Shown here piece by piece: positions 3,113 through 63,540 of a DNA stretch of 64,000 bases. The position numbers and the translations under genes were made by a program. The notes beneath the pieces were generated by a model. The model searched no databases. It was not told where the DNA came from and saw only the letters and a program-made list of their open reading frames with translations. The DNA is from an uncultured Bacilli bacterium (GTDB taxonomy: Bacteria > Bacillota_I > Bacilli_A > RF39 > UBA660): contig CALVXC010000001.1 in the NCBI GenBank assembly GCA_944368805.1, positions 7,885 through 71,884 on the forward strand, written 5' to 3'. Each line of letters opens with the position of its first letter. Position 1 is the stretch's first letter.

Positions 3113-5917
3113 ATGGATGAAATTATTATAAAAGGCGCTAGAGAAAATAATTTAAAAAATGTTGATATAACTTTACCTAAAAATAAATTAATCGTTATGA
3201 CTGGTGTTAGTGGTAGTGGTAAATCTTCTTTAGCCTTCGATACAATTTATGCTGAAGGTCAAAGACGATATGTCGAAAGTTTAAGTGCTTATGCTAGACA
3301 ATTTTTAGGTGGTACAGAAAAACCACTAGTTGATAGCATTGAAGGGTTAAGTCCCGCTATTAGTATTGAACAAAAAACAACTAATAAAAACCCTCGTAGT
3401 ACTGTAGGAACTGTAACCGAAATATATGATTATTTAAGATTATTATATGCTAGAATTGGTATACCTTATTGTCCTAATCATCATAAACCAATTTTTAGTC
3501 AAAGTATTGAAGAGATGGTTAATAAAGTTTTAGAATTAAGTCCAAATACTAAAATAAGAATTATTAGTCCTATAGTTCATGGTGAGAAAGGTACTTTTAA
3601 AGAATTATTAGAAAATTTAAAAAAAGATGGTTATGTTCGTGTTCGAATTGACGAAAAAGAATATGATTTATCAGAAGAAATAAATCTTTCTAAAACGAAA
3701 AAACATTTTATTCATGTTATAATTGATCGTTTAATTATTAATGATGAAATTAGAAGTAGGTTATATGAATCAATTGAAATAGCTACCAAATTATCTAAAG
3801 GAAAAGTTGTCGTTGATATTATTGGTGGCGAAGAGTTATTAATGAGTGAAAATTATGCTTGTCCTGATTGCGGTTTTTCACTACCAGAATTAGAACCAAG
3901 AATGTTTTCTTTTAATGCTCCATATGGTGCTTGTCCTGATTGTAAAGGACTTGGAATTAAACTTAAGATTGATGAAGACTTAATTATTCCTAATCGTAAT
4001 TTAAGCATTAATGAAGGAGGAATTGTTCCTTTAAATTTAGATGCTAATATATATTATACGCAAATAAATACCGTTGCTAAATACTACGATATTGATTTAA
4101 ATAAACCAATTAAAGATTTACCTAAAGAAAAATTAGATATTATTTTATACGGTAGTAAAGAAATGCTAGAATTTAATTATATTTCAAGTAATGGTAATAC
4201 GAGAAAAACAAACGATTATTTTGAAGGAATTGTTAATAATCTTGAAAGACGTTATATTGAAACAAAGAGTGGTTGGATTAGAGAATGGATTGAAAAATTT
4301 ATGACTGAGCTTCCTTGTGATACTTGTCATGGTTCTAGATTAGATGACGGTGTTTTATCTGTTTTAATTGGCAAAAAGAATATTTACGAAACAACTAAAT
4401 TAAGTATTAGAGATTTATACGAATTTATCAATAATTTAAAATTAACTAAAACTGAACAAAGTATATCTGAATTAATTATAAAAGAAATAAAATCACGCTT
4501 ATCGTTTTTAATAAATGTAGGGTTAGAATATTTAACATTAGATAGAATGGCTGGTACTTTATCAGGTGGTGAAGCATCAAGAATTAGATTAGCAACTCAG
4601 ATTGGTTCTAGACTAACAGGCGTTTTATATGTACTAGATGAACCTAGTATTGGCTTGCATCAACGTGATAATAATCGTTTAATTAATTCTTTATTAGAAA
4701 TGCGTGATTTAGGTAATACTTTAGTTGTTGTTGAACACGATACTGATACAATGTTAGCTAGTGATTATTTAGTTGATATAGGACCTTTAGCAGGTTTACA
4801 CGGTGGACAAGTAGTTGCGAAAGGAACACCAAAAGAAGTAATGGAAAATGAAAGTAGTATTACTGGCCGTTATTTAAGTGGTAAAGAAAAAATAGAAGTT
4901 CCTAAAACCAGGCGAAAAGGTAATGGTAAATTTTTAAAAGTAATAGGTGCGAAAGAAAATAATTTAAAAAATATTAATGTTAAATTTCCTTTAGGTACTT
5001 TAATATGTGTTACGGGTGTTAGTGGTAGTGGTAAAAGTAGTCTAATTAATGAAATTTTATATAAAGCTTTAGCTAACCATGTTTATAAATCTAAAGAAAA
5101 ACCTGGTAAATTTAAAGAAATTAAAGGTTTAGAAAACATTGATAAAGTTATAGACATTTCTCAAGCACCAATTGGTAGAACACCTAGAAGTAACCCAGCT
5201 ACTTATACCGGCGTTTTTGATGATATTAGAGATGTTTTTACAAACACTAAAGAAGCTAAGATGAGAGGTTATCAAAAAGGAAGATTTTCTTTTAACGTTA
5301 AAGGCGGCCGTTGTGAAGCATGCTGGGGTGATGGTGTTAAGAAAATTGAAATGCATTTTTTACCAGATGTATATGTACCTTGTGAAGTTTGTGGTGGAAC
5401 TCGTTATAATAGTGAAACTTTAGAAATAAAATTTAAAGGTAAAAACATTCATCAAGTTTTAGAAATGCGCGTTGAAGAAGCTTTAGAATTCTTTGAAAAT
5501 TTTCCTAAAATTAAATATAAATTACAAATGTTAAATGATGTTGGTCTTTCTTATATCAAATTAGGTCAAAGTGCACCAACATTATCAGGTGGTGAAGCTG
5601 GAAGAGTTAAATTAGCTAAAGAGTTACAAAAAAAACCAACTGGTAAAAGTTTATTTATTTTAGATGAACCAACTACTGGTTTACATAGTTATGATATTAA
5701 AAAATTATTATCTATTTTACAAAAGATTGTTGATAACGGTGATACTGTTATTGTTATTGAACATAATTTGGATGTTATTAAACAAGCTGATTATATTATT
5801 GATTTAGGTCCTGAAGGTGGGGATAATGGAGGAACAATTGTTGCAACTGGTACTCCTGAACAAATAGTAGAAGTTAATAATAGTTATACTGGTCAATTTT
5901 TAAAACCTTTATTGTAA
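3113..5917 (+). CDS. uvrA: excinuclease ABC subunit A
   Basis: 934 aa. Two ABC modules (GVSGSGKSSLAFDT...; second GVSGSGKSSLINE), zinc-finger Cys pairs and LSGGE signature motifs. Confidence 0.95.
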   Translation: MDEIIIKGARENNLKNVDITLPKNKLIVMTGVSGSGKSSLAFDTIYAEGQRRYVESLSAYARQFLGGTEKPLVDSIEGLSPAISIEQKTTNKNPRSTVGTVTEIYDYLRLLYARIGIPYCPNHHKPIFSQSIEEMVNKVLELSPNTKIRIISPIVHGEKGTFKELLENLKKDGYVRVRIDEKEYDLSEEINLSKTKKHFIHVIIDRLIINDEIRSRLYESIEIATKLSKGKVVVDIIGGEELLMSENYACPDCGFSLPELEPRMFSFNAPYGACPDCKGLGIKLKIDEDLIIPNRNLSINEGGIVPLNLDANIYYTQINTVAKYYDIDLNKPIKDLPKEKLDIILYGSKEMLEFNYISSNGNTRKTNDYFEGIVNNLERRYIETKSGWIREWIEKFMTELPCDTCHGSRLDDGVLSVLIGKKNIYETTKLSIRDLYEFINNLKLTKTEQSISELIIKEIKSRLSFLINVGLEYLTLDRMAGTLSGGEASRIRLATQIGSRLTGVLYVLDEPSIGLHQRDNNRLINSLLEMRDLGNTLVVVEHDTDTMLASDYLVDIGPLAGLHGGQVVAKGTPKEVMENESSITGRYLSGKEKIEVPKTRRKGNGKFLKVIGAKENNLKNINVKFPLGTLICVTGVSGSGKSSLINEILYKALANHVYKSKEKPGKFKEIKGLENIDKVIDISQAPIGRTPRSNPATYTGVFDDIRDVFTNTKEAKMRGYQKGRFSFNVKGGRCEACWGDGVKKIEMHFLPDVYVPCEVCGGTRYNSETLEIKFKGKNIHQVLEMRVEEALEFFENFPKIKYKLQMLNDVGLSYIKLGQSAPTLSGGEAGRVKLAKELQKKPTGKSLFILDEPTTGLHSYDIKKLLSILQKIVDNGDTVIVIEHNLDVIKQADYIIDLGPEGGDNGGTIVATGTPEQIVEVNNSYTGQFLKPLL

Positions 5918-55420: not shown

Positions 55421-57409
55421 ATGGAGTTACAAAGTATTAAAGGTATCGGTGATAAAACGGTTAAATTATTTAATAAACTAGGTATTTATAATACCAATGA
55501 TTTAATCAATTATTTTCCGTTTCGGTATGAAGTTATTAAAAGAAGTGATGTTAATAATTTAAAAGATAATGATAAAATTATTATTGATGGTGTAATTGAA
55601 AATATACCTAATTTATATCGTATTAATAAAAAATTAGATAAAATGACCTTTCGAATTAATAGTGGTGAACAATTATTTAATGTTACGATTTTTAATCGTG
55701 GTTTTTTAAAATCTAGTTTAAGAATTGGTAGTGTTATAACTGTTATTGGTAAATATAATGTTAAAAACAATTCAATAACAGCGAACGATATAAAGTTAAT
55801 GACTTTAGGTAATAAGATAACGATTGAACCTATTTATCATAAAGTTAGTGGTCTTAGTAATAAACAAATTCATAATTACATTAATAAAATTATTGATCAA
55901 GAAACAATTAGTTATATACCTAATTATCTAGAAGAAAAATATCATTTTCTAGATCATTATAAATCATTAAATTGTTTGCATAATCCTACTGATTTAAAAT
56001 TATTAAAACAAGCTAGATTAAGATTTAAATATGAAGAGTTGTTTTTATTTATGTTAAAAATGACGGTTTTAAAAATGAGTAAAAAAAATAATTTAGGATT
56101 AAAGCGCAATATTTCGTATACTGAACTTACAGATATTATTAAACAGTTACCGTTTACTTTAACAGTTGACCAAAAAAAGGCGATTGATATGATTTATTCC
56201 GATTTAAATTCTAATATAGCTATGAATAGATTATTACAAGGAGATGTTGGTAGTGGTAAGACAATTGTAGCTTTTTTAACAATTTATTTAAACTATTTAT
56301 CTGGTTATCAAAGTGCCTTAATGGTACCAACGGAAATTTTGTCTATTCAACATTACCACAATTTTTTAGAAATTTTTAAAAACAAAAATATAAATTGTCG
56401 TTTGTTAACTGGTAAAACAAGTTTAAAAGAAAAAAGGAAAATTTATGATGAATTAAAAACTGGGAAGATAGATGTAATTATAGGAACACACGCTTTAATT
56501 AGTGATAATGTTAATTATTATAATTTAGGTTTAGTTGTTACTGATGAACAGCATCGATTTGGAGTTAAACAAAGAGAAAATTTATATAATAAAGGAATTA
56601 CCCCAGATATTTTATATATGAGTGCGACACCCATACCTAGAACTTATGCTATTACATTATATGGTGATATGGATATATCTTCAATTAAAACAATGCCTAG
56701 TGGTCGTAAGCCGGTTATAACTTATTTGAAAAGTAATAAAGAAATTAAAGATGTTTTAAATCTAATGTATAACCAATTAGAAAATAGTCATCAAATTTAT
56801 GTTATTGCTCCATTAATTGAAGACAATGATAAATTAGATTTAGATAGTATTTATAAGTTAGAATATAAGATGAATTTAGCTTTCGGTAAGAAATATAATG
56901 TTGGTATTTTACACGGAAAACTTAATAATAAAGAAAAAGAAGAAGTGATGAGTAAATTTAAACATAACGATATTCAAATTTTGATTAGTACAACGGTTGT
57001 TGAAGTTGGTGTTGATGTTAAAAATGCCACTATGATGGTTATTTTTGATAGTTATCGATTTGGTTTGTCAACTTTACATCAATTGCGTGGTCGTGTTGGA
57101 AGAAATAGTTTAGATTCTTATTGTGTTTTAATTAGTGATCGAGAAACTAAAAGACTTGATATTTTAACTAAAACTAATGATGGCTTTAAAATTAGTGAAG
57201 AAGATTTTAAATTAAGAGGTAGTGGAGATATATTTGGGATTAGACAAAGCGGTGATATGTGTTTTAATATTGCTGATATTAAACAAGATTTTGATTTAGT
57301 TTTAAAAGCTAAAGAAGATAGTGAGGCTTTTATTAAAAATAAAGAATATTTAAAAATAGAAAACAAACATATCATTGATTTAGTAAAATCCTCTAGCAAA
57401 ATTAGTTAA
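55421..57409 (+). CDS. recG: ATP-dependent DNA helicase RecG
   Basis: 662 aa. N-terminal wedge/OB region, helicase motifs 'GDVGSGKT', 'VTDEQHRFGV', 'MSATPIPRT', 'QLRGRVGRN'. Confidence 0.85.
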   Translation: MELQSIKGIGDKTVKLFNKLGIYNTNDLINYFPFRYEVIKRSDVNNLKDNDKIIIDGVIENIPNLYRINKKLDKMTFRINSGEQLFNVTIFNRGFLKSSLRIGSVITVIGKYNVKNNSITANDIKLMTLGNKITIEPIYHKVSGLSNKQIHNYINKIIDQETISYIPNYLEEKYHFLDHYKSLNCLHNPTDLKLLKQARLRFKYEELFLFMLKMTVLKMSKKNNLGLKRNISYTELTDIIKQLPFTLTVDQKKAIDMIYSDLNSNIAMNRLLQGDVGSGKTIVAFLTIYLNYLSGYQSALMVPTEILSIQHYHNFLEIFKNKNINCRLLTGKTSLKEKRKIYDELKTGKIDVIIGTHALISDNVNYYNLGLVVTDEQHRFGVKQRENLYNKGITPDILYMSATPIPRTYAITLYGDMDISSIKTMPSGRKPVITYLKSNKEIKDVLNLMYNQLENSHQIYVIAPLIEDNDKLDLDSIYKLEYKMNLAFGKKYNVGILHGKLNNKEKEEVMSKFKHNDIQILISTTVVEVGVDVKNATMMVIFDSYRFGLSTLHQLRGRVGRNSLDSYCVLISDRETKRLDILTKTNDGFKISEEDFKLRGSGDIFGIRQSGDMCFNIADIKQDFDLVLKAKEDSEAFIKNKEYLKIENKHIIDLVKSSSKIS

Positions 57410-57446: not shown

Positions 57447-57475
57447 TTGACTTTTAGGATAATTATCTTTATAAT
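57447..57475 (+). promoter_or_regulatory. strong consensus sigma-A promoter (TTGACT-17-TATAAT) 40 nt downstream of the recG stop
   Basis: -35 at 57447-57452, 17-nt spacer, -10 at 57470-57475. No protein gene follows within 250 nt. Confidence 0.6.
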
Positions 57476-57482
57476 GATAATA

Positions 57483-57585
57483 GCGTGATTGATTCACGCG
57501 GACACTCTTACGGTTATATAATGTGAGAGTGCTCAACCAAAACCCCCTGAAGGAGCCTTATGGCTCCATTTTTGTTTGTTTAAGT
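57483..57585 (+). ncRNA. candidate 100-nt small RNA (promoter, three hairpins, intrinsic terminator)
   Basis: Hairpins cgtga-ttgat-tcacg (57484-57498) and cactct...agagtg (57503-57533), then terminator ggagcc-ttat-ggctcc followed by attttTGTTTGTTT (57552-57584). The terminator stem carries an SD-like 'gaaggag' and a 7-codon ORF ATG gct cca ttt ttg ttt gtt taa (57560-57583). Confidence 0.45.
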
Positions 57586-57680
57586 TTAAAATAATTTATT
57601 ATAGGTTTTCTAAAGTTTAAAAAAGTTTAATTTAGTTCTAATTAGTTTAAATATTGTGGGTGGTTAAAAATATAAAAATT

Positions 57681-57731
57681 AACCTAATTATACCAAAAAG
57701 CGTTGACCAAATGGTATAATTAGGTTAAAAT
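57681..57731 (+). promoter_or_regulatory. abiEi promoter with a perfect 15-bp inverted-repeat operator (aacctaattatacca ... tggtataattaggtt) flanking the -35 TTGACC
   Basis: Left arm 57681-57695 and right arm 57712-57726 are exact reverse complements. TTGACC at 57703-57708, 17-nt spacer, TAAAAT at 57726-57731. AbiEi proteins are known autorepressors that bind inverted repeats in their own promoter. Confidence 0.6.
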
Positions 57732-57741
57732 TATATTGGTG

Positions 57742-58290
57742 ATGAAAATGTTATATAATCATAGCGAAATAAAAAATAAATATAAAACAACTTATCAAAT
57801 ACGAAAAGCAATAAGTAATAAAGAAATATATAAAATAGAAAAAGGTATTTATTCAGATAATCCAGAAGTGCATTATTTAGCAATTTTAATGAAAAAGTAT
57901 CCTTATGCAGTTATTACAGGAGAATCAGCATATTATTATTATAATTTTACTGATATAATACCTTCTAAAATATATTTAGCTACACGTGATGTTAATACAA
58001 GAATACATGATAAAGACATTAAACAAATTCGTATGAGGGACAATCTTTATAAATTAGGCAGTACTCAAATTATATATGAGGGAGTAATTATAAATATTTT
58101 TGATAAAGAGCGTTTATTAATTGATTTAGCAAGAAATAAAAATAAAATTGGATATGATTTATATAAAGAAATTATATTTAATTATAGAAAAATTGCTGAT
58201 AAATTGGATGTAAGTAAAATAGAAGAATATTTACAATATTTTTCAAATAGTGATAAGATACTTGGAATATTACAAGATGAGGTGTTTTAA
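57742..58290 (+). CDS. abiEi: AbiEi-family type IV toxin-antitoxin antitoxin / transcriptional autorepressor
   Basis: About 180 aa. N-terminal wHTH '...IYKIEKGIYS', then 'YPYAVITGESAYYYYNFTD' matching the AbiEi 'A.I.G.SAL..HGL.D' signature. Stop TAA overlaps the next ATG (TAATG). ATG 57742 or 57748 is the likely start; the ORF-track TTG 57736 is an extension. Confidence 0.7.
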   Translation: MKMLYNHSEIKNKYKTTYQIRKAISNKEIYKIEKGIYSDNPEVHYLAILMKKYPYAVITGESAYYYYNFTDIIPSKIYLATRDVNTRIHDKDIKQIRMRDNLYKLGSTQIIYEGVIINIFDKERLLIDLARNKNKIGYDLYKEIIFNYRKIADKLDVSKIEEYLQYFSNSDKILGILQDEVF

Positions 58291-59111
58291 TGAATTTAAG
58301 TAAATCAGTAGAACAATATATCCAGATTGGATATAAAAAAGATGATGCTATATCTAAGGTTGCGCAAGATATAATTCTTTTAAAAATATCAAAGAGTAAT
58401 TTTTCAGAGTATATTACCATCAAAGGTGGAGTTGTAATGCACTCTATATCTAGAGATAATCGTAGAGCTACTAGAGATTTAGATATGGATTTTATTAAAT
58501 ACGCTTTAGAAGATAACTCTATTCATAATTTTATATTAAAATTAAATGCAGTAAAAGATGGTATTAGTATTGAAATAGTAGGTAAAATTGAAAAATTGCA
58601 CCATCAGGACTATGATGGAAAGAGAGTTAATATAAGACTAATCGATTCTAATGAATTTATAATAAATACCAAATTAGATATTGGAGTTCATAAATTATTT
58701 GATATAGAACAAGATAACTATTGTTTTGATTTAGGCATTTTTAAAGAAAATGTTAATTTACTTATAAATTCAAGGGAACAAATTTTTGCTGAAAAATTAA
58801 AGTCATTACTAAAATTTGGAATAACATCAACAAGATATAAAGATGTATTCGATTTTTATTATTTAATTAATAATGAAAAATTAGATAAAAATAAATTGTT
58901 AAAATATATAGATATTCTTATTTTTGAAGATTCACTCATGAAAGAAAATGATTTTGAAGGTATAATAACTAGAATTAATTTGATTTTTAAAAATAGTAGA
59001 TATAGATCTATGTTAAATCAAGCAAACAATAATTGGTTAAATTTACCTGTTGATATTGTTATAAATAATATTTTAGAATTTCTATCATCTTTAGAAGTGG
59101 TGAGTGTCTGA
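58290..59111 (+). CDS. abiEii: AbiEii/AbiGii-family nucleotidyltransferase toxin (DUF1814)
   Basis: 273 aa. N-terminal NTase motif 'IKGGVVMHSISRDNRRATRDLDMDF' (hKGG...R.T.DLD). Size and position immediately after AbiEi with a 1-nt overlap. Confidence 0.7.
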   Translation: MNLSKSVEQYIQIGYKKDDAISKVAQDIILLKISKSNFSEYITIKGGVVMHSISRDNRRATRDLDMDFIKYALEDNSIHNFILKLNAVKDGISIEIVGKIEKLHHQDYDGKRVNIRLIDSNEFIINTKLDIGVHKLFDIEQDNYCFDLGIFKENVNLLINSREQIFAEKLKSLLKFGITSTRYKDVFDFYYLINNEKLDKNKLLKYIDILIFEDSLMKENDFEGIITRINLIFKNSRYRSMLNQANNNWLNLPVDIVINNILEFLSSLEVVSV

Positions 59112-59112
59112 T

Positions 59113-61479
59113 ATGAGTAAGGAGATAATCAATTTAATAAATGAAAAAGAAGAACAAATAAAAAAGCTACAAGAAGAAATTGCAATTTTAAAAAAGAAAC
59201 TAGAAATTCTTGATAAATCAGATAAATCAACAATCATATTTTCTAAAGAAGAAAAAGTGAATCTATTTATGAATTATTTTAGGGGGAGAGATGATACATA
59301 CCCATATTTATCTATTGATAAAAATAATCCAAGCAAGAAATATTATATTCCAGCTTGCATTAATGAATGGAAACAAGGAATTTGCAATAAGCTTATGAAA
59401 AGGCCTTGCAAAACTTGTCAATATAGAGAAAATAAACCATTAACATATGAGGTTTATCAAAAACATTTAGAAGGACAAATAATAGGTATTTATCCACTTT
59501 TAGATGATGAAACATGTTATTTTCTTGCTTTTGATTTTGATGATAAATTAGAAGAAAAAAATATAAAAGATGATGTACTTGCTTTTTGGAGTGTTTGTGA
59601 AGAGTATCATGTTCCAATATCAGTTGAGAAAAGCAGATCAGGTAAAGGATTTCATATTTGGTTATTCTTTACTGAAAGAGTAAAAGCAATTACAGCTAGA
59701 AAATTGGGTAGTCTTCTTTTATCTAAAACTATGGAAGTAAGGGATAATTTAAAAATATCTTCTTTTGATAGAATGTTTCCTAGTCAAGACTTTTTACCAA
59801 AAGGAGGATATGGTAATTTAATTGTGTTACCATTTCAAAAAGAACCAGCTAGCTATGGAAATACTTTATTTATTGATAAATATTTTATACCTTATAAAAA
59901 CCAGTGGGAATATCTAAAGAATATTAGAAAAATATCTAATGAGGATGTATATGATTTGATAAAAATATTATCCGATAATACAATAGATGTTAGTCATGAG
60001 GATTTAAATATTAAAGAAGAAATAAAAAGTAAAAAGAAAAATAATTTTAAATTTCCAAAATCTTTGGATGTTATATTAGATGATATGATTTATATTGACA
60101 AGAAAAATTTGTCAGCAGGAGCAAAAAATTGTTTTAGACGATTAGCATCTTTTGCAAATCCAGAATTTTATAAAAAACAAAGACTTCGTTTATCAACTTA
60201 TAATGTCCCTATGGTAATAGATTGTAGTAGTGTAGATGATAGATATATTAAATTACCACGAGGAACGTATGAGTATTTATTAGACATTTGTAACGAAAAA
60301 AAAGTAAAATTGAAAATAAAAGATAAAAGAAATCAAGGATACAAAATAAACATAAATTTTAATGGTAGTTTACGTGATGAACAAGAAATGTGTTTAAATA
60401 GATTATTGAGTTATGATAATGGAATTTTACATGCACCAACTGGATTTGGAAAAACAGTAGTGGCTTGTAATTTAATTGCAAAAAAGAAAGTTAACACATT
60501 AATTATTGTTCATAGTTTAAGTTTATTAAAACAATGGCAAGAAAGAATTAAAGAATTTTTAGGTGTTGAAAATGTTGGTCAAATTGGAGGAGGAAAAAAT
60601 ACAATTACCAATGTAATAGATGTTGCTAGTATTAAAACTTTGTGGAATAAAGGTGAATTAAATGAAATAACCAAAAATTATGGAATGATTATAATTGATG
60701 AATGTCATCATTTAGCCGCTTTTACTTATGAACAAGCAGTAAACAGTATTAACTCTAAATATGTCTATGGTTTTACAGCAACCCCTAATAGAGAAGATGG
60801 ACATAGTCCAATTGTTAAAATGCAATGCGGTGATATTAGATATGAAGTTGATTTTAAAAAGTTTAATGAAAATCTTGGCATTCCTATGATAGTTAAAGTT
60901 AAAGAAACTTATTTGAAATTTGCTGATCCATTAATAAACGATTATACAATTAATGAAATAAATAACTTAATTACGAAGGATATGGATAGAAGTGAAATGA
61001 TTTTTAACGATGTCAAAAATGAATATAAGAAAGGAAAAAATATTCTTATATTAACTGAGAGAATAGAACATTTAGAGTATTTGAGTTCTAGAATGCAAAA
61101 AATTACAAATAATGTATTTGTATATAAGGGTGGATTAGGTAAAAAAATATTAAAAGAATATGATGAAAGTAATAGAATGATATTAAATCAGAACAAAAAT
61201 AAAATTATTTTAGCAACAGGATCTTATATTGGTGAAGGATTTGATGATTCAAGTTTAGATGTTTTATTTTTAACCATGCCTATTTCAGGAATTACAAAAG
61301 TAACCCAATATACAGGAAGGCTACATAGAAAGAATGATAATAAAAAAGAAATCATTATTTATGATTATGTTGATAAAAATTTTAAACAAACAAGAAATAT
61401 GTTTGAAAAACGAAAAAAGACATATGTAAAATTGGGCTATAAAATAATAGATGAAAGATCTGTACAATTAACAATATAA
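59113..61479 (+). CDS. fusion protein: N-terminal coiled-coil, Cys4 cluster, archaeo-eukaryotic primase (PrimPol) domain, central linker domain, C-terminal XPB/RAD25-like SF2 (DEAH) helicase
   Basis: ATG 59113 lies 1 nt after the abiEii TGA (translational coupling); the ORF track uses GTG 59104. AEP motif I 'YFLAFDFDDK' (DxD), motif II 'SRSGKGFHIWLFF' (sGxGxHhh), motif III region 'SFDRMFP'. Upstream 'CINEWKQGICNKLMKRPCKTC' is a 4-Cys cluster. Helicase Q-like 'LRDEQEMCL', motif I 'HAPTGFGKT', motif II 'IIDECHH', motif III 'GFTATPNREDG' (XPB-type), motif VI 'TQYTGRLHR'. Confidence 0.7.
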   Translation: MSKEIINLINEKEEQIKKLQEEIAILKKKLEILDKSDKSTIIFSKEEKVNLFMNYFRGRDDTYPYLSIDKNNPSKKYYIPACINEWKQGICNKLMKRPCKTCQYRENKPLTYEVYQKHLEGQIIGIYPLLDDETCYFLAFDFDDKLEEKNIKDDVLAFWSVCEEYHVPISVEKSRSGKGFHIWLFFTERVKAITARKLGSLLLSKTMEVRDNLKISSFDRMFPSQDFLPKGGYGNLIVLPFQKEPASYGNTLFIDKYFIPYKNQWEYLKNIRKISNEDVYDLIKILSDNTIDVSHEDLNIKEEIKSKKKNNFKFPKSLDVILDDMIYIDKKNLSAGAKNCFRRLASFANPEFYKKQRLRLSTYNVPMVIDCSSVDDRYIKLPRGTYEYLLDICNEKKVKLKIKDKRNQGYKININFNGSLRDEQEMCLNRLLSYDNGILHAPTGFGKTVVACNLIAKKKVNTLIIVHSLSLLKQWQERIKEFLGVENVGQIGGGKNTITNVIDVASIKTLWNKGELNEITKNYGMIIIDECHHLAAFTYEQAVNSINSKYVYGFTATPNREDGHSPIVKMQCGDIRYEVDFKKFNENLGIPMIVKVKETYLKFADPLINDYTINEINNLITKDMDRSEMIFNDVKNEYKKGKNILILTERIEHLEYLSSRMQKITNNVFVYKGGLGKKILKEYDESNRMILNQNKNKIILATGSYIGEGFDDSSLDVLFLTMPISGITKVTQYTGRLHRKNDNKKEIIIYDYVDKNFKQTRNMFEKRKKTYVKLGYKIIDERSVQLTI

Positions 61480-61634
61480 GAAGAATATCAACCACCCATT
61501 CAACCACCAAAATAGGAGATTTTTATTTTAAAGTTATAAACTTGTTTAAACTTTTGTAAACAAAAATCCTTTGAAAATAAAGGATTTGATAATATAAAAT
61601 AGTTTAGAGTACGTGATATAAGTTTGCCCCCTGA

Positions 61635-61668
61635 AATCCCAGCCGAGAGGCTGGGATACTTTGTTTAT
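61635..61668 (+). terminator. intrinsic terminator (atcccagcc-gaga-ggctgggat followed by actttgtttat)
   Basis: 9-bp GC-rich stem, unusual in this genome, preceded by 'ccccctgaa' and followed by a T-rich tract. Sits 150 nt after the PrimPol-helicase stop. A second hairpin aaatccttt-gaaaat-aaaggattt lies at 61565-61588. Confidence 0.6.
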
Positions 61669-61823
61669 AAGGGATTTTAACTATTTTTGGGAGAATTTCA
61701 AGGGTTAATAGACTTTATGACAGCAATTTGGTACAATGTAAATGATGGGTCATATGAAAAACTTTGTATTTTTAACTGAACATCAAACGTTTAGAAATAA
61801 TCAATTAGACATATTAAGAAGAT

Positions 61824-62145
61824 ATGAAAAAAATGCGTCATAACTGCTTTTTCAGTTTTATTAGGTGGTTTTGTATCATCAAGTTATCATACAAATGAAG
61901 AAGACACTTTAAAAGATCGAACTGGATGGTGGCGAACTAAAACGATTTATCATAATGAAGCATGCACTATTTTAAAAAATGGCAGTCGGATTTTAATTTC
62001 TTCTAATATACGTACTGGTGGGACACGCCCAATTTTATCGTACTCTTCAATAGTATCAATTTATTTGAACAAAAAAGAAATAGAACATAATAGAAATTAT
62101 ACACAAAATACAATAAAACAAGAGGACTTAAATCTTGAAGAATAG
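61824..62145 (+). pseudogene. small secreted protein gene out of frame at a poly-A(7) tract in codons 2-4 (phase-variable or frameshifted)
   Basis: ATG 61824 is followed by A7 (61827-61833) and terminates after 24 codons. Removing one A gives MKKCVITAFSVLLGGFVSSSYHTNEED...LNLEE (about 106 aa) with a classic signal peptide. That 103-codon frame (61834-62145) has no internal stop and no ATG, so it is absent from the ORF track. Confidence 0.5.
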
Positions 62146-62186
62146 CAATCTAATTCAAAATAGTTAGTGAAAAGGAAAGAAAGAAA

Positions 62187-63155
62187 ATGGAAAAAAAGTA
62201 TAATTTAACAAATAAAGAAATATTAAACTCTATAAAACACGTTGTTGATAATTCTAAATATGTAAGTATAAATGAAAATAATATTGACAATGTTATTCCA
62301 ATTTTGAAAGAAAATAAAAAAGAGCCTTGGCTAAATAGTGATTATCTAGATATTGAAAACTTTTTACAGGAACAAATTTTAATGTATTTGATATTATGTG
62401 AATCGTTAAATTTTTGTTATTGGGATTCTGATATAAAATGGAAAATAGAATATAAAGATGAATGGTATTCTGGTTCGTTTGGATTATTTTATGCCATATC
62501 TAAAGCTATTAAAAATGGCTATAAACTTTTAGATATTGATTATTTGGAAAATATTACAATGAAAGAACTTGATGAAATATTTAAAGGAACAACTTCTATA
62601 CCTTTATTAAAAGAAAGATATGAAATAATAAAAAGATTGGTTGTTGAATTTAAAAATATACCTAATCTACTAGATGCAATTAGTGCTAATAATGATATAG
62701 AACTATTGAACAATATTATAAATAATTTTAGTAATTTTAGAGATATAAGTTTATACAAAGGAAAAAAAGTATATTTCTTTAAAAGAGCAATTCTTTTAGT
62801 AGGGGATTTAATTCTAAATATTAATTTTATTAAAGAAAGTGTTAAAAATGATGATCATATGTTAGGATGTGCGGATTATAAAGTTCCACAAGTTTTAAGA
62901 CAATTAGGGATTTTAGAATATTCTGACGATTTATCAACTAAAATTGATAATAAACAAAAAATAGAACATGATAGTGAAATGGAAATTGAAATTCGTGCCA
63001 ATATGTTATATGCGATAGAAATAATAAAAGAAAAATTACAAAAAAACGGAATTAAAATGAATTCTGTACAAATAGATAATGCTTTATGGTTATTAAGTAA
63101 GGATAAAGAATTTAAAGAAAAGCCTTATCACTTAACAAAAACAATTTATTATTAA
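62187..63155 (+). CDS. DUF2419 / queuosine-salvage (Qng1-like) family protein
   Basis: 322 aa. 'FRDISLYKGKKVYFFKRAILLVGDL' and 'CADYKVPQVLRQLGIL' resemble conserved blocks of the eukaryotic/bacterial Q-salvage protein family as remembered. RBS 'aaaggaaag'. Confidence 0.45.
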   Translation: MEKKYNLTNKEILNSIKHVVDNSKYVSINENNIDNVIPILKENKKEPWLNSDYLDIENFLQEQILMYLILCESLNFCYWDSDIKWKIEYKDEWYSGSFGLFYAISKAIKNGYKLLDIDYLENITMKELDEIFKGTTSIPLLKERYEIIKRLVVEFKNIPNLLDAISANNDIELLNNIINNFSNFRDISLYKGKKVYFFKRAILLVGDLILNINFIKESVKNDDHMLGCADYKVPQVLRQLGILEYSDDLSTKIDNKQKIEHDSEMEIEIRANMLYAIEIIKEKLQKNGIKMNSVQIDNALWLLSKDKEFKEKPYHLTKTIYY

Positions 63156-63164
63156 ATAAAATAT

Positions 63165-63540
63165 ATAAGCTAAAGAAGGAGCTAATGTAATTATTGTTGG
63201 AAGACATGAATAAACATTAAAACAAGCAGCTAATATAGATGGTAAAATTTCTTATGTAGTTGGTGATATTACCGATAGTGACGTTGTTTTAAAAGTAGTT
63301 AATTTAGCTAAAGATAAATTTGAGGAAATTGATATTTTAGTTAATAATGCAGGATGGTGTCCAGTTCAACCAATTTACCTGAAGATGAAGAAAGAAAACA
63401 TGAGGAAAGTATTACTAGTAATATTCCATTTAAACGTTTTGGTACTCCTGAAGAAGTAGCCAATGTTGCTTTATTTTTAGTAAGTGACGAAGCAAGTTAT
63501 GTTAGTGGTTCTATTTATTCTGTAACTGGTGCTTCATAAA
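63165..63540 (+). pseudogene. short-chain dehydrogenase/reductase (FabG-like) remnant: 5'-truncated, in-frame stop, about 115-codon internal deletion
   Basis: 'AKEGANVIIVGRHE*TLKQAANIDGKISYVVGDITD...[13 protein letters not shown]' corresponds to SDR residues 25-90. It then jumps, with a frameshift, to '[54 protein letters not shown]', the SDR C-terminus. The GxxxGxG N-terminus and the S-Y-K catalytic core are absent. Confidence 0.7.

Follow-up and report, generated by a model that had tools for sequence, protein, structure and literature searches.

What is encoded by a gene that fuses a primase-polymerase to a helicase-like motor and sits directly behind a toxin-antitoxin (TA) operon? The question is raised by a 64-kb stretch of DNA from an uncultured Bacilli bacterium (GenBank assembly GCA_944368805.1, contig CALVXC010000001.1, positions 7885 to 71 884; hereafter the window), in which an intact open reading frame (ORF) on the + strand encodes a protein of 788 aa. 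An initial annotation made from the sequence had described this protein as an unusual combination, in one polypeptide, of a coiled coil, a four-cysteine (Cys4) cluster, an archaeo-eukaryotic primase (AEP) domain of the PrimPol type and a superfamily 2 (SF2) helicase of the XPB type. The gene product very likely belongs to the IEE (insertion sequence [IS]-excision enhancer; 'Z1568-like' AEP) family, since its homology to Escherichia coli IEE runs from end to end and the two proteins have their domain order and catalytic residues in common. The gene is called iee-like below, and residue numbers refer to the 788-aa protein starting at the ATG.

The iee gene of E. coli O157:H7 (ECs_1305/ECs1305, Z1568) was located in the Sakai chromosome and its product was compared directly with the window protein. 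The BLASTP alignment extended end to end over 750 aa, with 40% identity and 58% positives (551 bits). The IEE catalytic residues D142, D144, H178, D216, Y128, S171, G176, K451 and R735 all align to identical residues in the window protein, and the residues so assigned are invariant in 77/77 full-length relatives from species-representative genomes. Among them is Y127 (Y128 in IEE), a Tyr in place of the ribose-sensing His (77/77). The SF2 motifs were equally conserved, K447, DECH 529-532 and R736 being kept in all 77. The acidic and His residues, the absence of which from an alignment had been named in the initial annotation as speaking against the AEP assignment, are present. IEE is described as a 786-aa protein in which an N-terminal Z1568-like AEP domain is joined to a helicase-like domain of SF2 (PMC9943667), and it is the Z1568-like family's founding member. 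It was named a 'PrimPol helicase' in a 2023 overview, with HHpred matches to 7NQE and UvsW (bioRxiv 10.1101/2023.06.07.543989), and Z1568-like is one of 13 AEP families in the classification cited by PMC5862659. The window protein is a moderately divergent new member of this known IEE/Z1568-like PrimPol-SF2 family. Its ORF can be extended to 791 aa from an upstream GTG (59104). The ATG at 59113 is the more likely start, because a GGTGA Shine-Dalgarno-like sequence is found 9 nt upstream of it and public gene calls use it.

The domain composition was confirmed by Pfam, by sequence matches in the Protein Data Bank (PDB) and by AlphaFold, and the six motifs quoted in the initial annotation (DFD, SGKGFHIW, HAPTGFGKT, DECH, FTATPNRED and QYTGRLHR) were all located. 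Pfam AEP-TOTE (PF22548) matched residues 50-284 (E=1.9e-81, 273 bits), ResIII/DEAD matched residues 422-563 (ResIII E=7e-28) and Helicase_C matched residues 640-743. Against PDB sequences, the polymerase half matched the Prim-Pol domain of the Marinitoga CRISPR-associated Prim-Pol (CAPP; E=1.7e-11) and the motor half, searched with phmmer, matched archaeal XPB (XPBII, E=1.7e-22). A predicted structure without an AEP fold had been named as the result that would speak against the assignment. The AlphaFold model of residues 40-310 (pLDDT 85.6, pTM 0.84) has this fold: its best match was 7nqd, the CAPP Prim-Pol (TM-score 0.81, root mean square deviation 3.2 Å, E=8e-16), followed by mycobacterial Prim-PolC and then by LigD polymerase domains. 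The full-length model (pLDDT 78.8) showed a helix at residues 2-36 and a two-lobe motor. When it was compared with the PDB using Foldseek, ranks 1-22 were all occupied by XPB (archaeal XPB and the XPB/Ssl2 of TFIIH, E down to 2.7e-23), as had been anticipated for the C-terminal half, and T4 UvsW came at rank 23. The Foldseek alignments to XPB ran over about 500 columns, exceeding the 441-aa targets. In the model, the alpha/beta linker domain ahead of the motor may possibly match the N-terminal domain of archaeal XPB. The N-terminal helix is probably a coiled coil, which would probably act as a dimerisation element to bring two DNA ends into synapsis.

The claim that this architecture is unusual did not survive. 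An AEP domain joined to an SF2 motor is what defines the Z1568-like/IEE family, in which 40% identity to IEE places the protein, and thousands of relatives have the same layout. A word-indexed protein search (E<=1e-10) returned more than 3146 proteins, the best 120 of which all contain AEP-TOTE and ResIII/DEAD and measure about 780-800 aa, except for three truncated fragments. An exhaustive HMMER scan of 50%-identity clusters (E<=1e-30) returned 2353 cluster representatives, and nearly all of the best 150 cover both halves. When one genome per species was scanned, at least 570 relatives were found in Bacillota, Acidobacteriota, Pseudomonadota, Planctomycetota, Bacteroidota, Chloroflexota, Actinomycetota and other phyla. 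The domain fusion itself changes nothing, having been catalogued in 2005, tied genetically to IS excision in 2011 and characterized biochemically in 2023. GenBank and RefSeq label such genes only 'DEAD/DEAH box helicase', and the IEE assignment gives a concrete, testable activity to a gene of an uncultured low-GC gut bacterium.

The Cys4 cluster was correctly placed by the initial annotation upstream of AEP motif I, but the x8-x8-x2 spacing given for it contains a one-residue slip. The spacing is C-x8-C-x7-C-x2-C, and the cluster is 39 residues ahead of the motif. It is invariant among close relatives and IEE (alignments A1 and A2) and is found in 55/77 of the wider relatives. In the remaining 22, mainly an Acidobacteriota clade, it is absent as a block: 20 keep no Cys of the four and two keep only the first, with a K/R-rich sequence instead. 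These loci (L027, L029-L031, L035, L042, L045, L049, L052-L054, L056, L063, L064, L067, L072, L073, L076, L090 and others) still keep all catalytic residues. A near-complete joint loss of the four Cys would be expected of one metal site that is dispensable. The Cys4 knuckle is probably a structural Zn site. The word 'cysteine' is absent from the IEE biochemistry paper (PMC9943667); an invariant cluster that is lost en bloc in one clade is a feature left undiscussed there.

Biochemically, IEE is an error-prone DNA polymerase that depends on Mn2+ and copes with dislocation of primer and template. It uses microhomologies of at least 4 bp to join 3' overhangs, for which its C-terminal domain is required; this domain is a DNA-dependent ATPase whose activity is abolished by K451A, and forked duplexes are not unwound (PMC9943667). 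By analogy, the window protein is expected to share these core activities. Its AEP domain would be a Mn2+-stimulated, low-fidelity, template-directed DNA polymerase, tolerating slippage and extending a 3' end paired by a few bases of microhomology. Its SF2 half would be a DNA-dependent ATPase that grips or translocates on the adjacent duplex with no unwinding, and would be needed to bring two 3' ends together. In cells, the substrate of the enzyme would be DNA that mobile elements have left broken or replicating. IEE co-occurs with copy-out-paste-in IS elements, transposases of the IS629-like type being carried by 94.75% of IEE-positive E. coli assemblies (PMC9943667). Two models have been put forward for IEE, microhomology end joining after transposase cleavage (Calvo; PMC9943667) and strand switching in copy-out replication (Chandler; bioRxiv 10.1101/2023.06.07.543989); in either model, the outcome would be the removal of IS copies and the creation of deletions. 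The polymerase activity that the initial annotation had thought plausible is therefore backed by a characterized homologue. Its proposal of a coupled 3'-5' unwinding is not backed by the behaviour of IEE, which hydrolyses ATP on DNA but did not unwind forked substrates, and its suggestion of short products made as a signal found no support. Priming by the window protein is possible, because its nearest solved relative, CAPP, is a primase-polymerase.

Several points weigh against membership of the IEE family or against carrying its functions over. Since identity to the characterized enzyme is only 40%, the window protein may have different activities. E. coli IEE is the only member for which enhancement of IS excision has been shown (PMC9943667; 10.1101/2023.06.07.543989). 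No primase assay for IEE was found in the text of PMC9943667 that was consulted, while the closest solved relative, CAPP, primes. The E. coli iee gene is not beside AbiE, so the AbiE-linked clade could differ in cellular role. A local IS partner may or may not be present, the screen for transposases having covered only the cassette and its flanking genes. Lastly, the Zn-binding and dimerization roles are ones we only infer.

The iee-like gene is the last of three co-oriented genes, abiEi, abiEii and iee-like, the features of which are collected in Table 1. The abiEii start overlaps the abiEi stop with one base in common (58290), and the iee-like ATG comes 1 nt after the abiEii stop codon. The true abiEi start is probably the ATG at 57748, because the PADLOC profile begins at residue 5. 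AbiEi autorepresses via inverted repeats in its own promoter (PMC13064643), and the 17-nt inverted repeat found here, which is kept in the L002 cassette (87% identical), is a probable AbiEi operator. No terminator-like site was detected on the + strand from 57568 to 61636. With one operator-bearing promoter, abutting or overlapping cistrons and one terminator, the three genes look like one predicted transcription unit. The iee-like gene would thus be co-transcribed with abiEi-abiEii, as part of a horizontally exchanged cassette (3.9 kb) that has its insertion site downstream of recG, and its expression would probably be under AbiEi autorepression.

Table 1. Features of the iee-like gene, its cassette and the flanking genes (window coordinates; residues of the 788-aa protein)
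Feature	Position	Strand	Basis or remark
recG	55421-57409		Upstream flank
Perfect 17-nt inverted repeat, TTAACCTAATTATACCA-N16-TGGTATAATTAGGTTAA	57679-57728 (arms 57679-57695 / 57712-57728)		Overlaps promoter
Sigma-70-like promoter, TTGACC-17-TAAAAT	57703-57731	+	Consensus match; inside the probable operator repeat; last such site before abiEi
abiEi, type IV antitoxin/transcriptional repressor	57736-58290	+	PADLOC AbiEi PDLC02238, E=2.6e-61
abiEii, nucleotidyltransferase toxin	58290-59111	+	PADLOC AbiEii PDLC02310, E=6.6e-105, full length; Pfam AbiEii, E=1.3e-17
iee-like gene, PrimPol (AEP) + XPB-like SF2 ATPase, 788 aa	59113-61479	+	ORF, Pfam, IEE homology
N-terminal long helix, residues 2-36	59116-59220	+	AF2 model, pLDDT about 86-92
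AEP (Prim-Pol) catalytic domain, Pfam AEP-TOTE	59251-59955	+	Pfam, domain model
Cys4 cluster C82/C91/C99/C102, inside AEP-TOTE domain	59356-59418	+	Alignment
AEP motif I, DFD 141-143 (D141, D143 = IEE D142, D144), metal ligands	59533-59541	+	
AEP motif II, SGKGFHIW 176-183 (H181 = IEE H178), nucleotide binding	59638-59661	+	
AEP motif III, FDRMFP (D219 = IEE D216), third carboxylate	59764-59781	+	
Alpha/beta linker domain before motor, residues about 315-405	60055-60327	+	Model secondary structure
SF2 RecA lobe 1 (ResIII/DEAD)	60367-60792	+	Pfam, motifs
Walker A, HAPTGFGKT 440-448 (K447 = IEE K451)	60430-60456	+	
DECH 529-532	60697-60708	+	
FTATPNRED 554-562 (position of the TATPNRED part)	60775-60798	+	
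SF2 RecA lobe 2 (Helicase_C)	61021-61332	+	Pfam
Motif VI, QYTGRLHR 732-739 (R736 = IEE R735, arginine finger)	61306-61329	+	
Intrinsic terminator, strong	61636-61667	+	9-bp stem (6 GC pairs) + T-rich tail
Queuosine-salvage gene	62187-63155		Downstream flank

The block 57642-61532 aligns to metagenomic contigs at 86.6% nucleotide identity, and in these contigs the three genes are flanked by a NUDIX gene on one side and an IS1595 transposase on the other. The cassette is found again downstream of recG, or beside a type IV secretion system coupling protein, in Bacilli that are more distant. Because this identity is kept in loci with different flanks, the 3.9-kb cassette appears to move as a unit and to be horizontally exchanged. 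The sequence of a 99.9%-identical strain (L001) diverges from the window right past the cassette (about 61636) and contains, at its positions 3135-3240, a decayed N-terminus of an IS605-type TnpB (Pfam HTH_OrfB_IS605, E=7e-9). Given this remnant and the IS1595 found on the same side of the 87%-identical cassette, the site 3' of the iee-like gene is an IS-associated variable spot. The TnpB and IS1595 types found near these relatives are not those shown to be responsive to IEE.

Two candidates for cassette ends were rejected. Terminal inverted repeats at 57605-57629 and 61537-61561 are not part of the block shared with L002. In the window, the 9-mer CCCCCTGAA with a GC hairpin terminator behind it has only two copies (57543-57575 and 61627-61667), which flank the cassette on either side and share one strand, and the downstream copy of L001 (3005-3036) is almost identical over 32 nt to the upstream copy of the window. 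As an att site it was discarded, and it was taken as a duplicated terminator and no general feature, because nine other AbiE-IEE cassettes have no flanking repeat of at least 11 nt with meaningful GC. In the two intergenic flanks, Rfam scans produced only chance matches below threshold. A strong promoter-like TTGACT-17-TATAAT (11/12) at 57447-57575, about 75 nt before the recG-side terminator, would yield a short transcript with no Rfam match. Downstream of the cassette, about 500 bp (61680-62186) contain fragments only, with no ORF above 36 aa and no match in the other loci, and are possibly a decayed gene. Further on, a 61-aa ORF (63354-63539) that matches the last ~45 positions of an enoyl-ACP reductase/short-chain dehydrogenase model (adh_short_C2, 1.1e-11) looks like a truncated gene remnant.

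To describe the neighbourhood of the family, ORFs were called in 84 non-redundant family loci, the neighbours were clustered and hidden Markov models were built from the clusters. AbiEii was the commonest neighbour cluster. It was found directly upstream and on the same strand in 13 of the 76 loci with enough upstream sequence, or in ~16/76 once over-extended ORF starts were allowed; the loci sampled come from the 80 best among at least 570 hits, are clade-redundant and perhaps hold only five or six independent AbiE events. Nearly all AbiEii-linked loci have an AbiEi-type gene ahead of AbiEii, and the gap between AbiEii and the iee-like gene is about -70 to +25 nt where the reading frames are intact. 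The linked loci span Bacilli, Acidobacteriota, Verrucomicrobiota, Gammaproteobacteria and Zixibacteria and fall on several separate branches of the IEE tree. Linkage was also seen in further Bacilli contigs and in one defence island, where the AbiE pair is downstream and restriction-modification genes and a DUF2397/DUF2398/SMC-like cluster stand alongside. No description of an AbiE-PrimPol linkage was found in the literature, in a search of limited coverage, and recurrent operonic AbiE coupling is the only element here that may be new.

This linkage is the main argument for a reading in which the three genes form one anti-phage or anti-plasmid conflict system, with the PrimPol-XPB protein as an effector or sensor working with the AbiEii toxin, a reading that partly overlaps the IEE explanation. 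It is joined by other observations. Pairwise identities of AbiEii and of the IEE-like proteins correlate (r=0.79), other toxin or TA genes (HigBA, HipA, VapBC and RelE/ParE) are beside or near relatives, the Pfam AEP domain is named after a 'conflict system', and some relatives have a C-terminal phospholipase D (PLD)-like nuclease domain. No full-length copy was found among 50 697 phage records, in which matches were confined to the helicase half. However, about 80% of the family loci, E. coli IEE included, are without AbiE, and the linked ones may reduce to the few independent events mentioned above. A correlation of this size is expected from shared ancestry alone, and TA pairs on mobile elements commonly travel beside unrelated cargo as addiction modules. 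In addition, no PADLOC system contains the protein, the sole match being a Cas-associated PrimPol profile. A conflict system is therefore a possibility we consider doubtful. That the coupling of AbiE to the iee-like gene is functional appears unlikely. Equally unlikely, and put forward only tentatively, is the proposal of abiEi-abiEii-iee-like as a distinct module of three components that has not been described before, with a functional coupling of the PrimPol/XPB-like enzyme to the AbiEii toxin. In such a module, the enzyme might trigger or effect abortive infection on invading or replicating DNA, or repair the host chromosome afterwards. If this were true, conflict or defence would be the main role of the IEE family, with IS excision in E. 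coli as a side effect.

Loci from plasmids and from lineages without AbiE widen the picture. A full-length copy is present in 96 plasmid records, where it is labelled 'DEAD/DEAH box helicase' only. One plasmid copy has HigBA directly upstream, and another is preceded by a resolvase and followed by a fragment of a Tn3 transposase. On the Sphingobium plasmid pTB1 (L098, 2929-7280), the iee-like gene follows tniB-tniQ and overlaps tniQ by 4 nt, and on an S. meliloti plasmid (L100, 2613-6250) it follows tniQ alone, which suggests that the iee-like genes behind tniQ belong to Tn5053/Tn7-like transposition operons. The other plasmid copies sampled adjoin three tyrosine recombinases, IS5 elements, IS66, or IS110 and RelE/ParE. 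One AbiE-less lineage has a Schlafen/AlbA_2-HATPase gene downstream and CBASS nearby, and in another AbiE-less relative Fic is found upstream and a serine recombinase downstream. The common theme of iee-like genes is that of cargo of mobile elements and islands, often by transposition or TA genes. This setting fits a DNA-transaction enzyme serving mobile DNA, and leaves a passenger accompanied by an addiction module and a three-gene defence system undistinguished.

Some observations were made in passing on other branches of the family. The gene with Schlafen AlbA_2 and HATPase_c_4 domains was found beside the iee-like gene in L008 (12414-14075) and seven other loci, mostly directly downstream, and a CBASS operon is near such a linked gene in one contig. 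Two or three clades have proteins of 920-1020 aa. In L033 (5686-8757), the C-terminal extension is a PLD-like nuclease (residues 891-1010, HxK motif; Pfam PLDc_2, 8.7e-11), and the same C-terminal motif was seen by eye in L058 and L070; the long form also occurs in L051, L055, L059, L066, L074, L080, L083, L086 and others. In 10 loci, among them L072 (8310-9839), L076 (8601-9857), L085 (4859-6016), L050, L053, L063, L090 and L091, the iee-like gene is adjoined on the same strand, mostly immediately downstream, by a gene for a ~380-510-aa protein from Acidobacteriota, Planctomycetota and others, with one sub-threshold and no confident Pfam match.

Another role considered was that of a replicative primase-helicase of a plasmid, an integrative and conjugative element or a satellite, comparable to pRN1 ORF904 or the D5 type, which would initiate replication of the element. 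When a mobile element encodes a PrimPol-helicase fusion, it is usually a replicase (PMC5862659; PMC11724360), and relatives of the window protein occur on plasmids and near conjugation genes. Yet the helicase is of the wrong class: the motor is an SF2 one (XPB/UvsW-like) and no hexameric SF3, SF4 or MCM helicase, and IEE showed no unwinding. Integrase, Rep and origin-like repeats are missing from the 3.9-kb cassette, which is chromosomal, between recG and the queuosine-salvage gene, and the carrier plasmids sampled have their own RepA or replicon type. A replicative function was rejected as very improbable.

A CRISPR-associated Prim-Pol of the 'CAPP-helicase' type, making prespacers for adaptation, was considered because the best PADLOC profile is Cas-associated PrimPol (3e-75), the CAPP Prim-Pol domain is the nearest structure solved, and non-CRISPR relatives are reported to have mostly the 'CAPP-helicase' layout. 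It can hardly be right: the 64-kb window has no CRISPR array, no cas gene is present among the cassette-flanking genes, to which the scan for cas was confined, no cas-like cluster recurs among the neighbours in the 84 loci, and the protein scores 77.3 bits with NCBIfam PrimPol_Msp against a cut-off of 200. Equally remote is a bacterial XPB/Rad25 orthologue carrying an additional polymerase domain and working in nucleotide excision repair. For residues about 320-780, the best matches in both sequence and fold are XPB structures, and the R-E-D triplet that the initial annotation took as an XPB hallmark does follow motif III (R560-E561-D562). But in the family only R (75/77) and D (71/77) are kept, the middle residue being K in 46, R in 18 and E in only 7 of the 77 relatives. 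The scores of 73.4 bits with NCBIfam repair_heli_XPB and 30.7 with rad25 are far under the curated cut-offs (610 and 328.7), no Bax1-like or TFIIH partner is adjacent (the neighbours are AbiEi, AbiEii, RecG and the queuosine-salvage gene), and the distribution is patchy and island-borne. A TOTE conflict system (TPR, OB, TBP, Effector, as defined in PMC12458937) was dismissed, only the Pfam name AEP-TOTE fitting and no TPR-OB or TBP being found among the flanking genes or recurring neighbours.

Membership of the IEE family is thus the preferred reading, and the AbiE linkage, the TA neighbours, the tniQ overlap and the PLD variants could help to settle the roles of IEE-type enzymes outside E. 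coli. Compared with known systems, the window protein most resembles E. coli IEE: the two have 788 and 786 aa, respectively, are collinear from the coiled coil to the C-terminus and have in common the Pfam order AEP-TOTE, ResIII and Helicase_C, the Cys4 cluster and the N-terminal helical segment. They differ in 60% of their residues, in the spacing between the second and third Cys (x6 in IEE, x7 in the window) and in the triplet after motif III (RRD in IEE, RED in the window). Unlike the window gene, E. coli iee belongs to no AbiE operon; it is part of the SpLE1 element, where its surroundings include DUF3987 and Rep-like genes and many IS. The cassette resembles AbiE TA systems in its full-length AbiEi and AbiEii, its overlapping cistrons and the inverted-repeat operator in its promoter; AbiE is a two-gene system (PMC13064643), whereas a third co-oriented gene is present here and in about 1/5 of IEE-family loci. 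Marinitoga CAPP (7nqd/7nqe/7nqf) is the closest solved AEP structure (21-24% identity) and a primase-polymerase for which a 'CAPP-helicase' subtype has been described, but it has an N-terminal tetratricopeptide repeat region, a C-terminal PriCT-like region and no SF2 motor, and is encoded in a type III CRISPR-Cas operon. The motor half has Walker A, DExH, TATP and QxxGRxxR motifs as well as both RecA lobes in common with XPB (Rad25/Ssl2) and T4 UvsW; identity is 13-21%, the Bax1/TFIIH partner is missing beside the window gene, and the motor of IEE hydrolyses ATP without unwinding. Finally, the AEP fusions to SF3 D5-like, DUF3987 or MCM partners differ in their C-terminal half, which in the window protein is an SF2 motor with an XPB fold.

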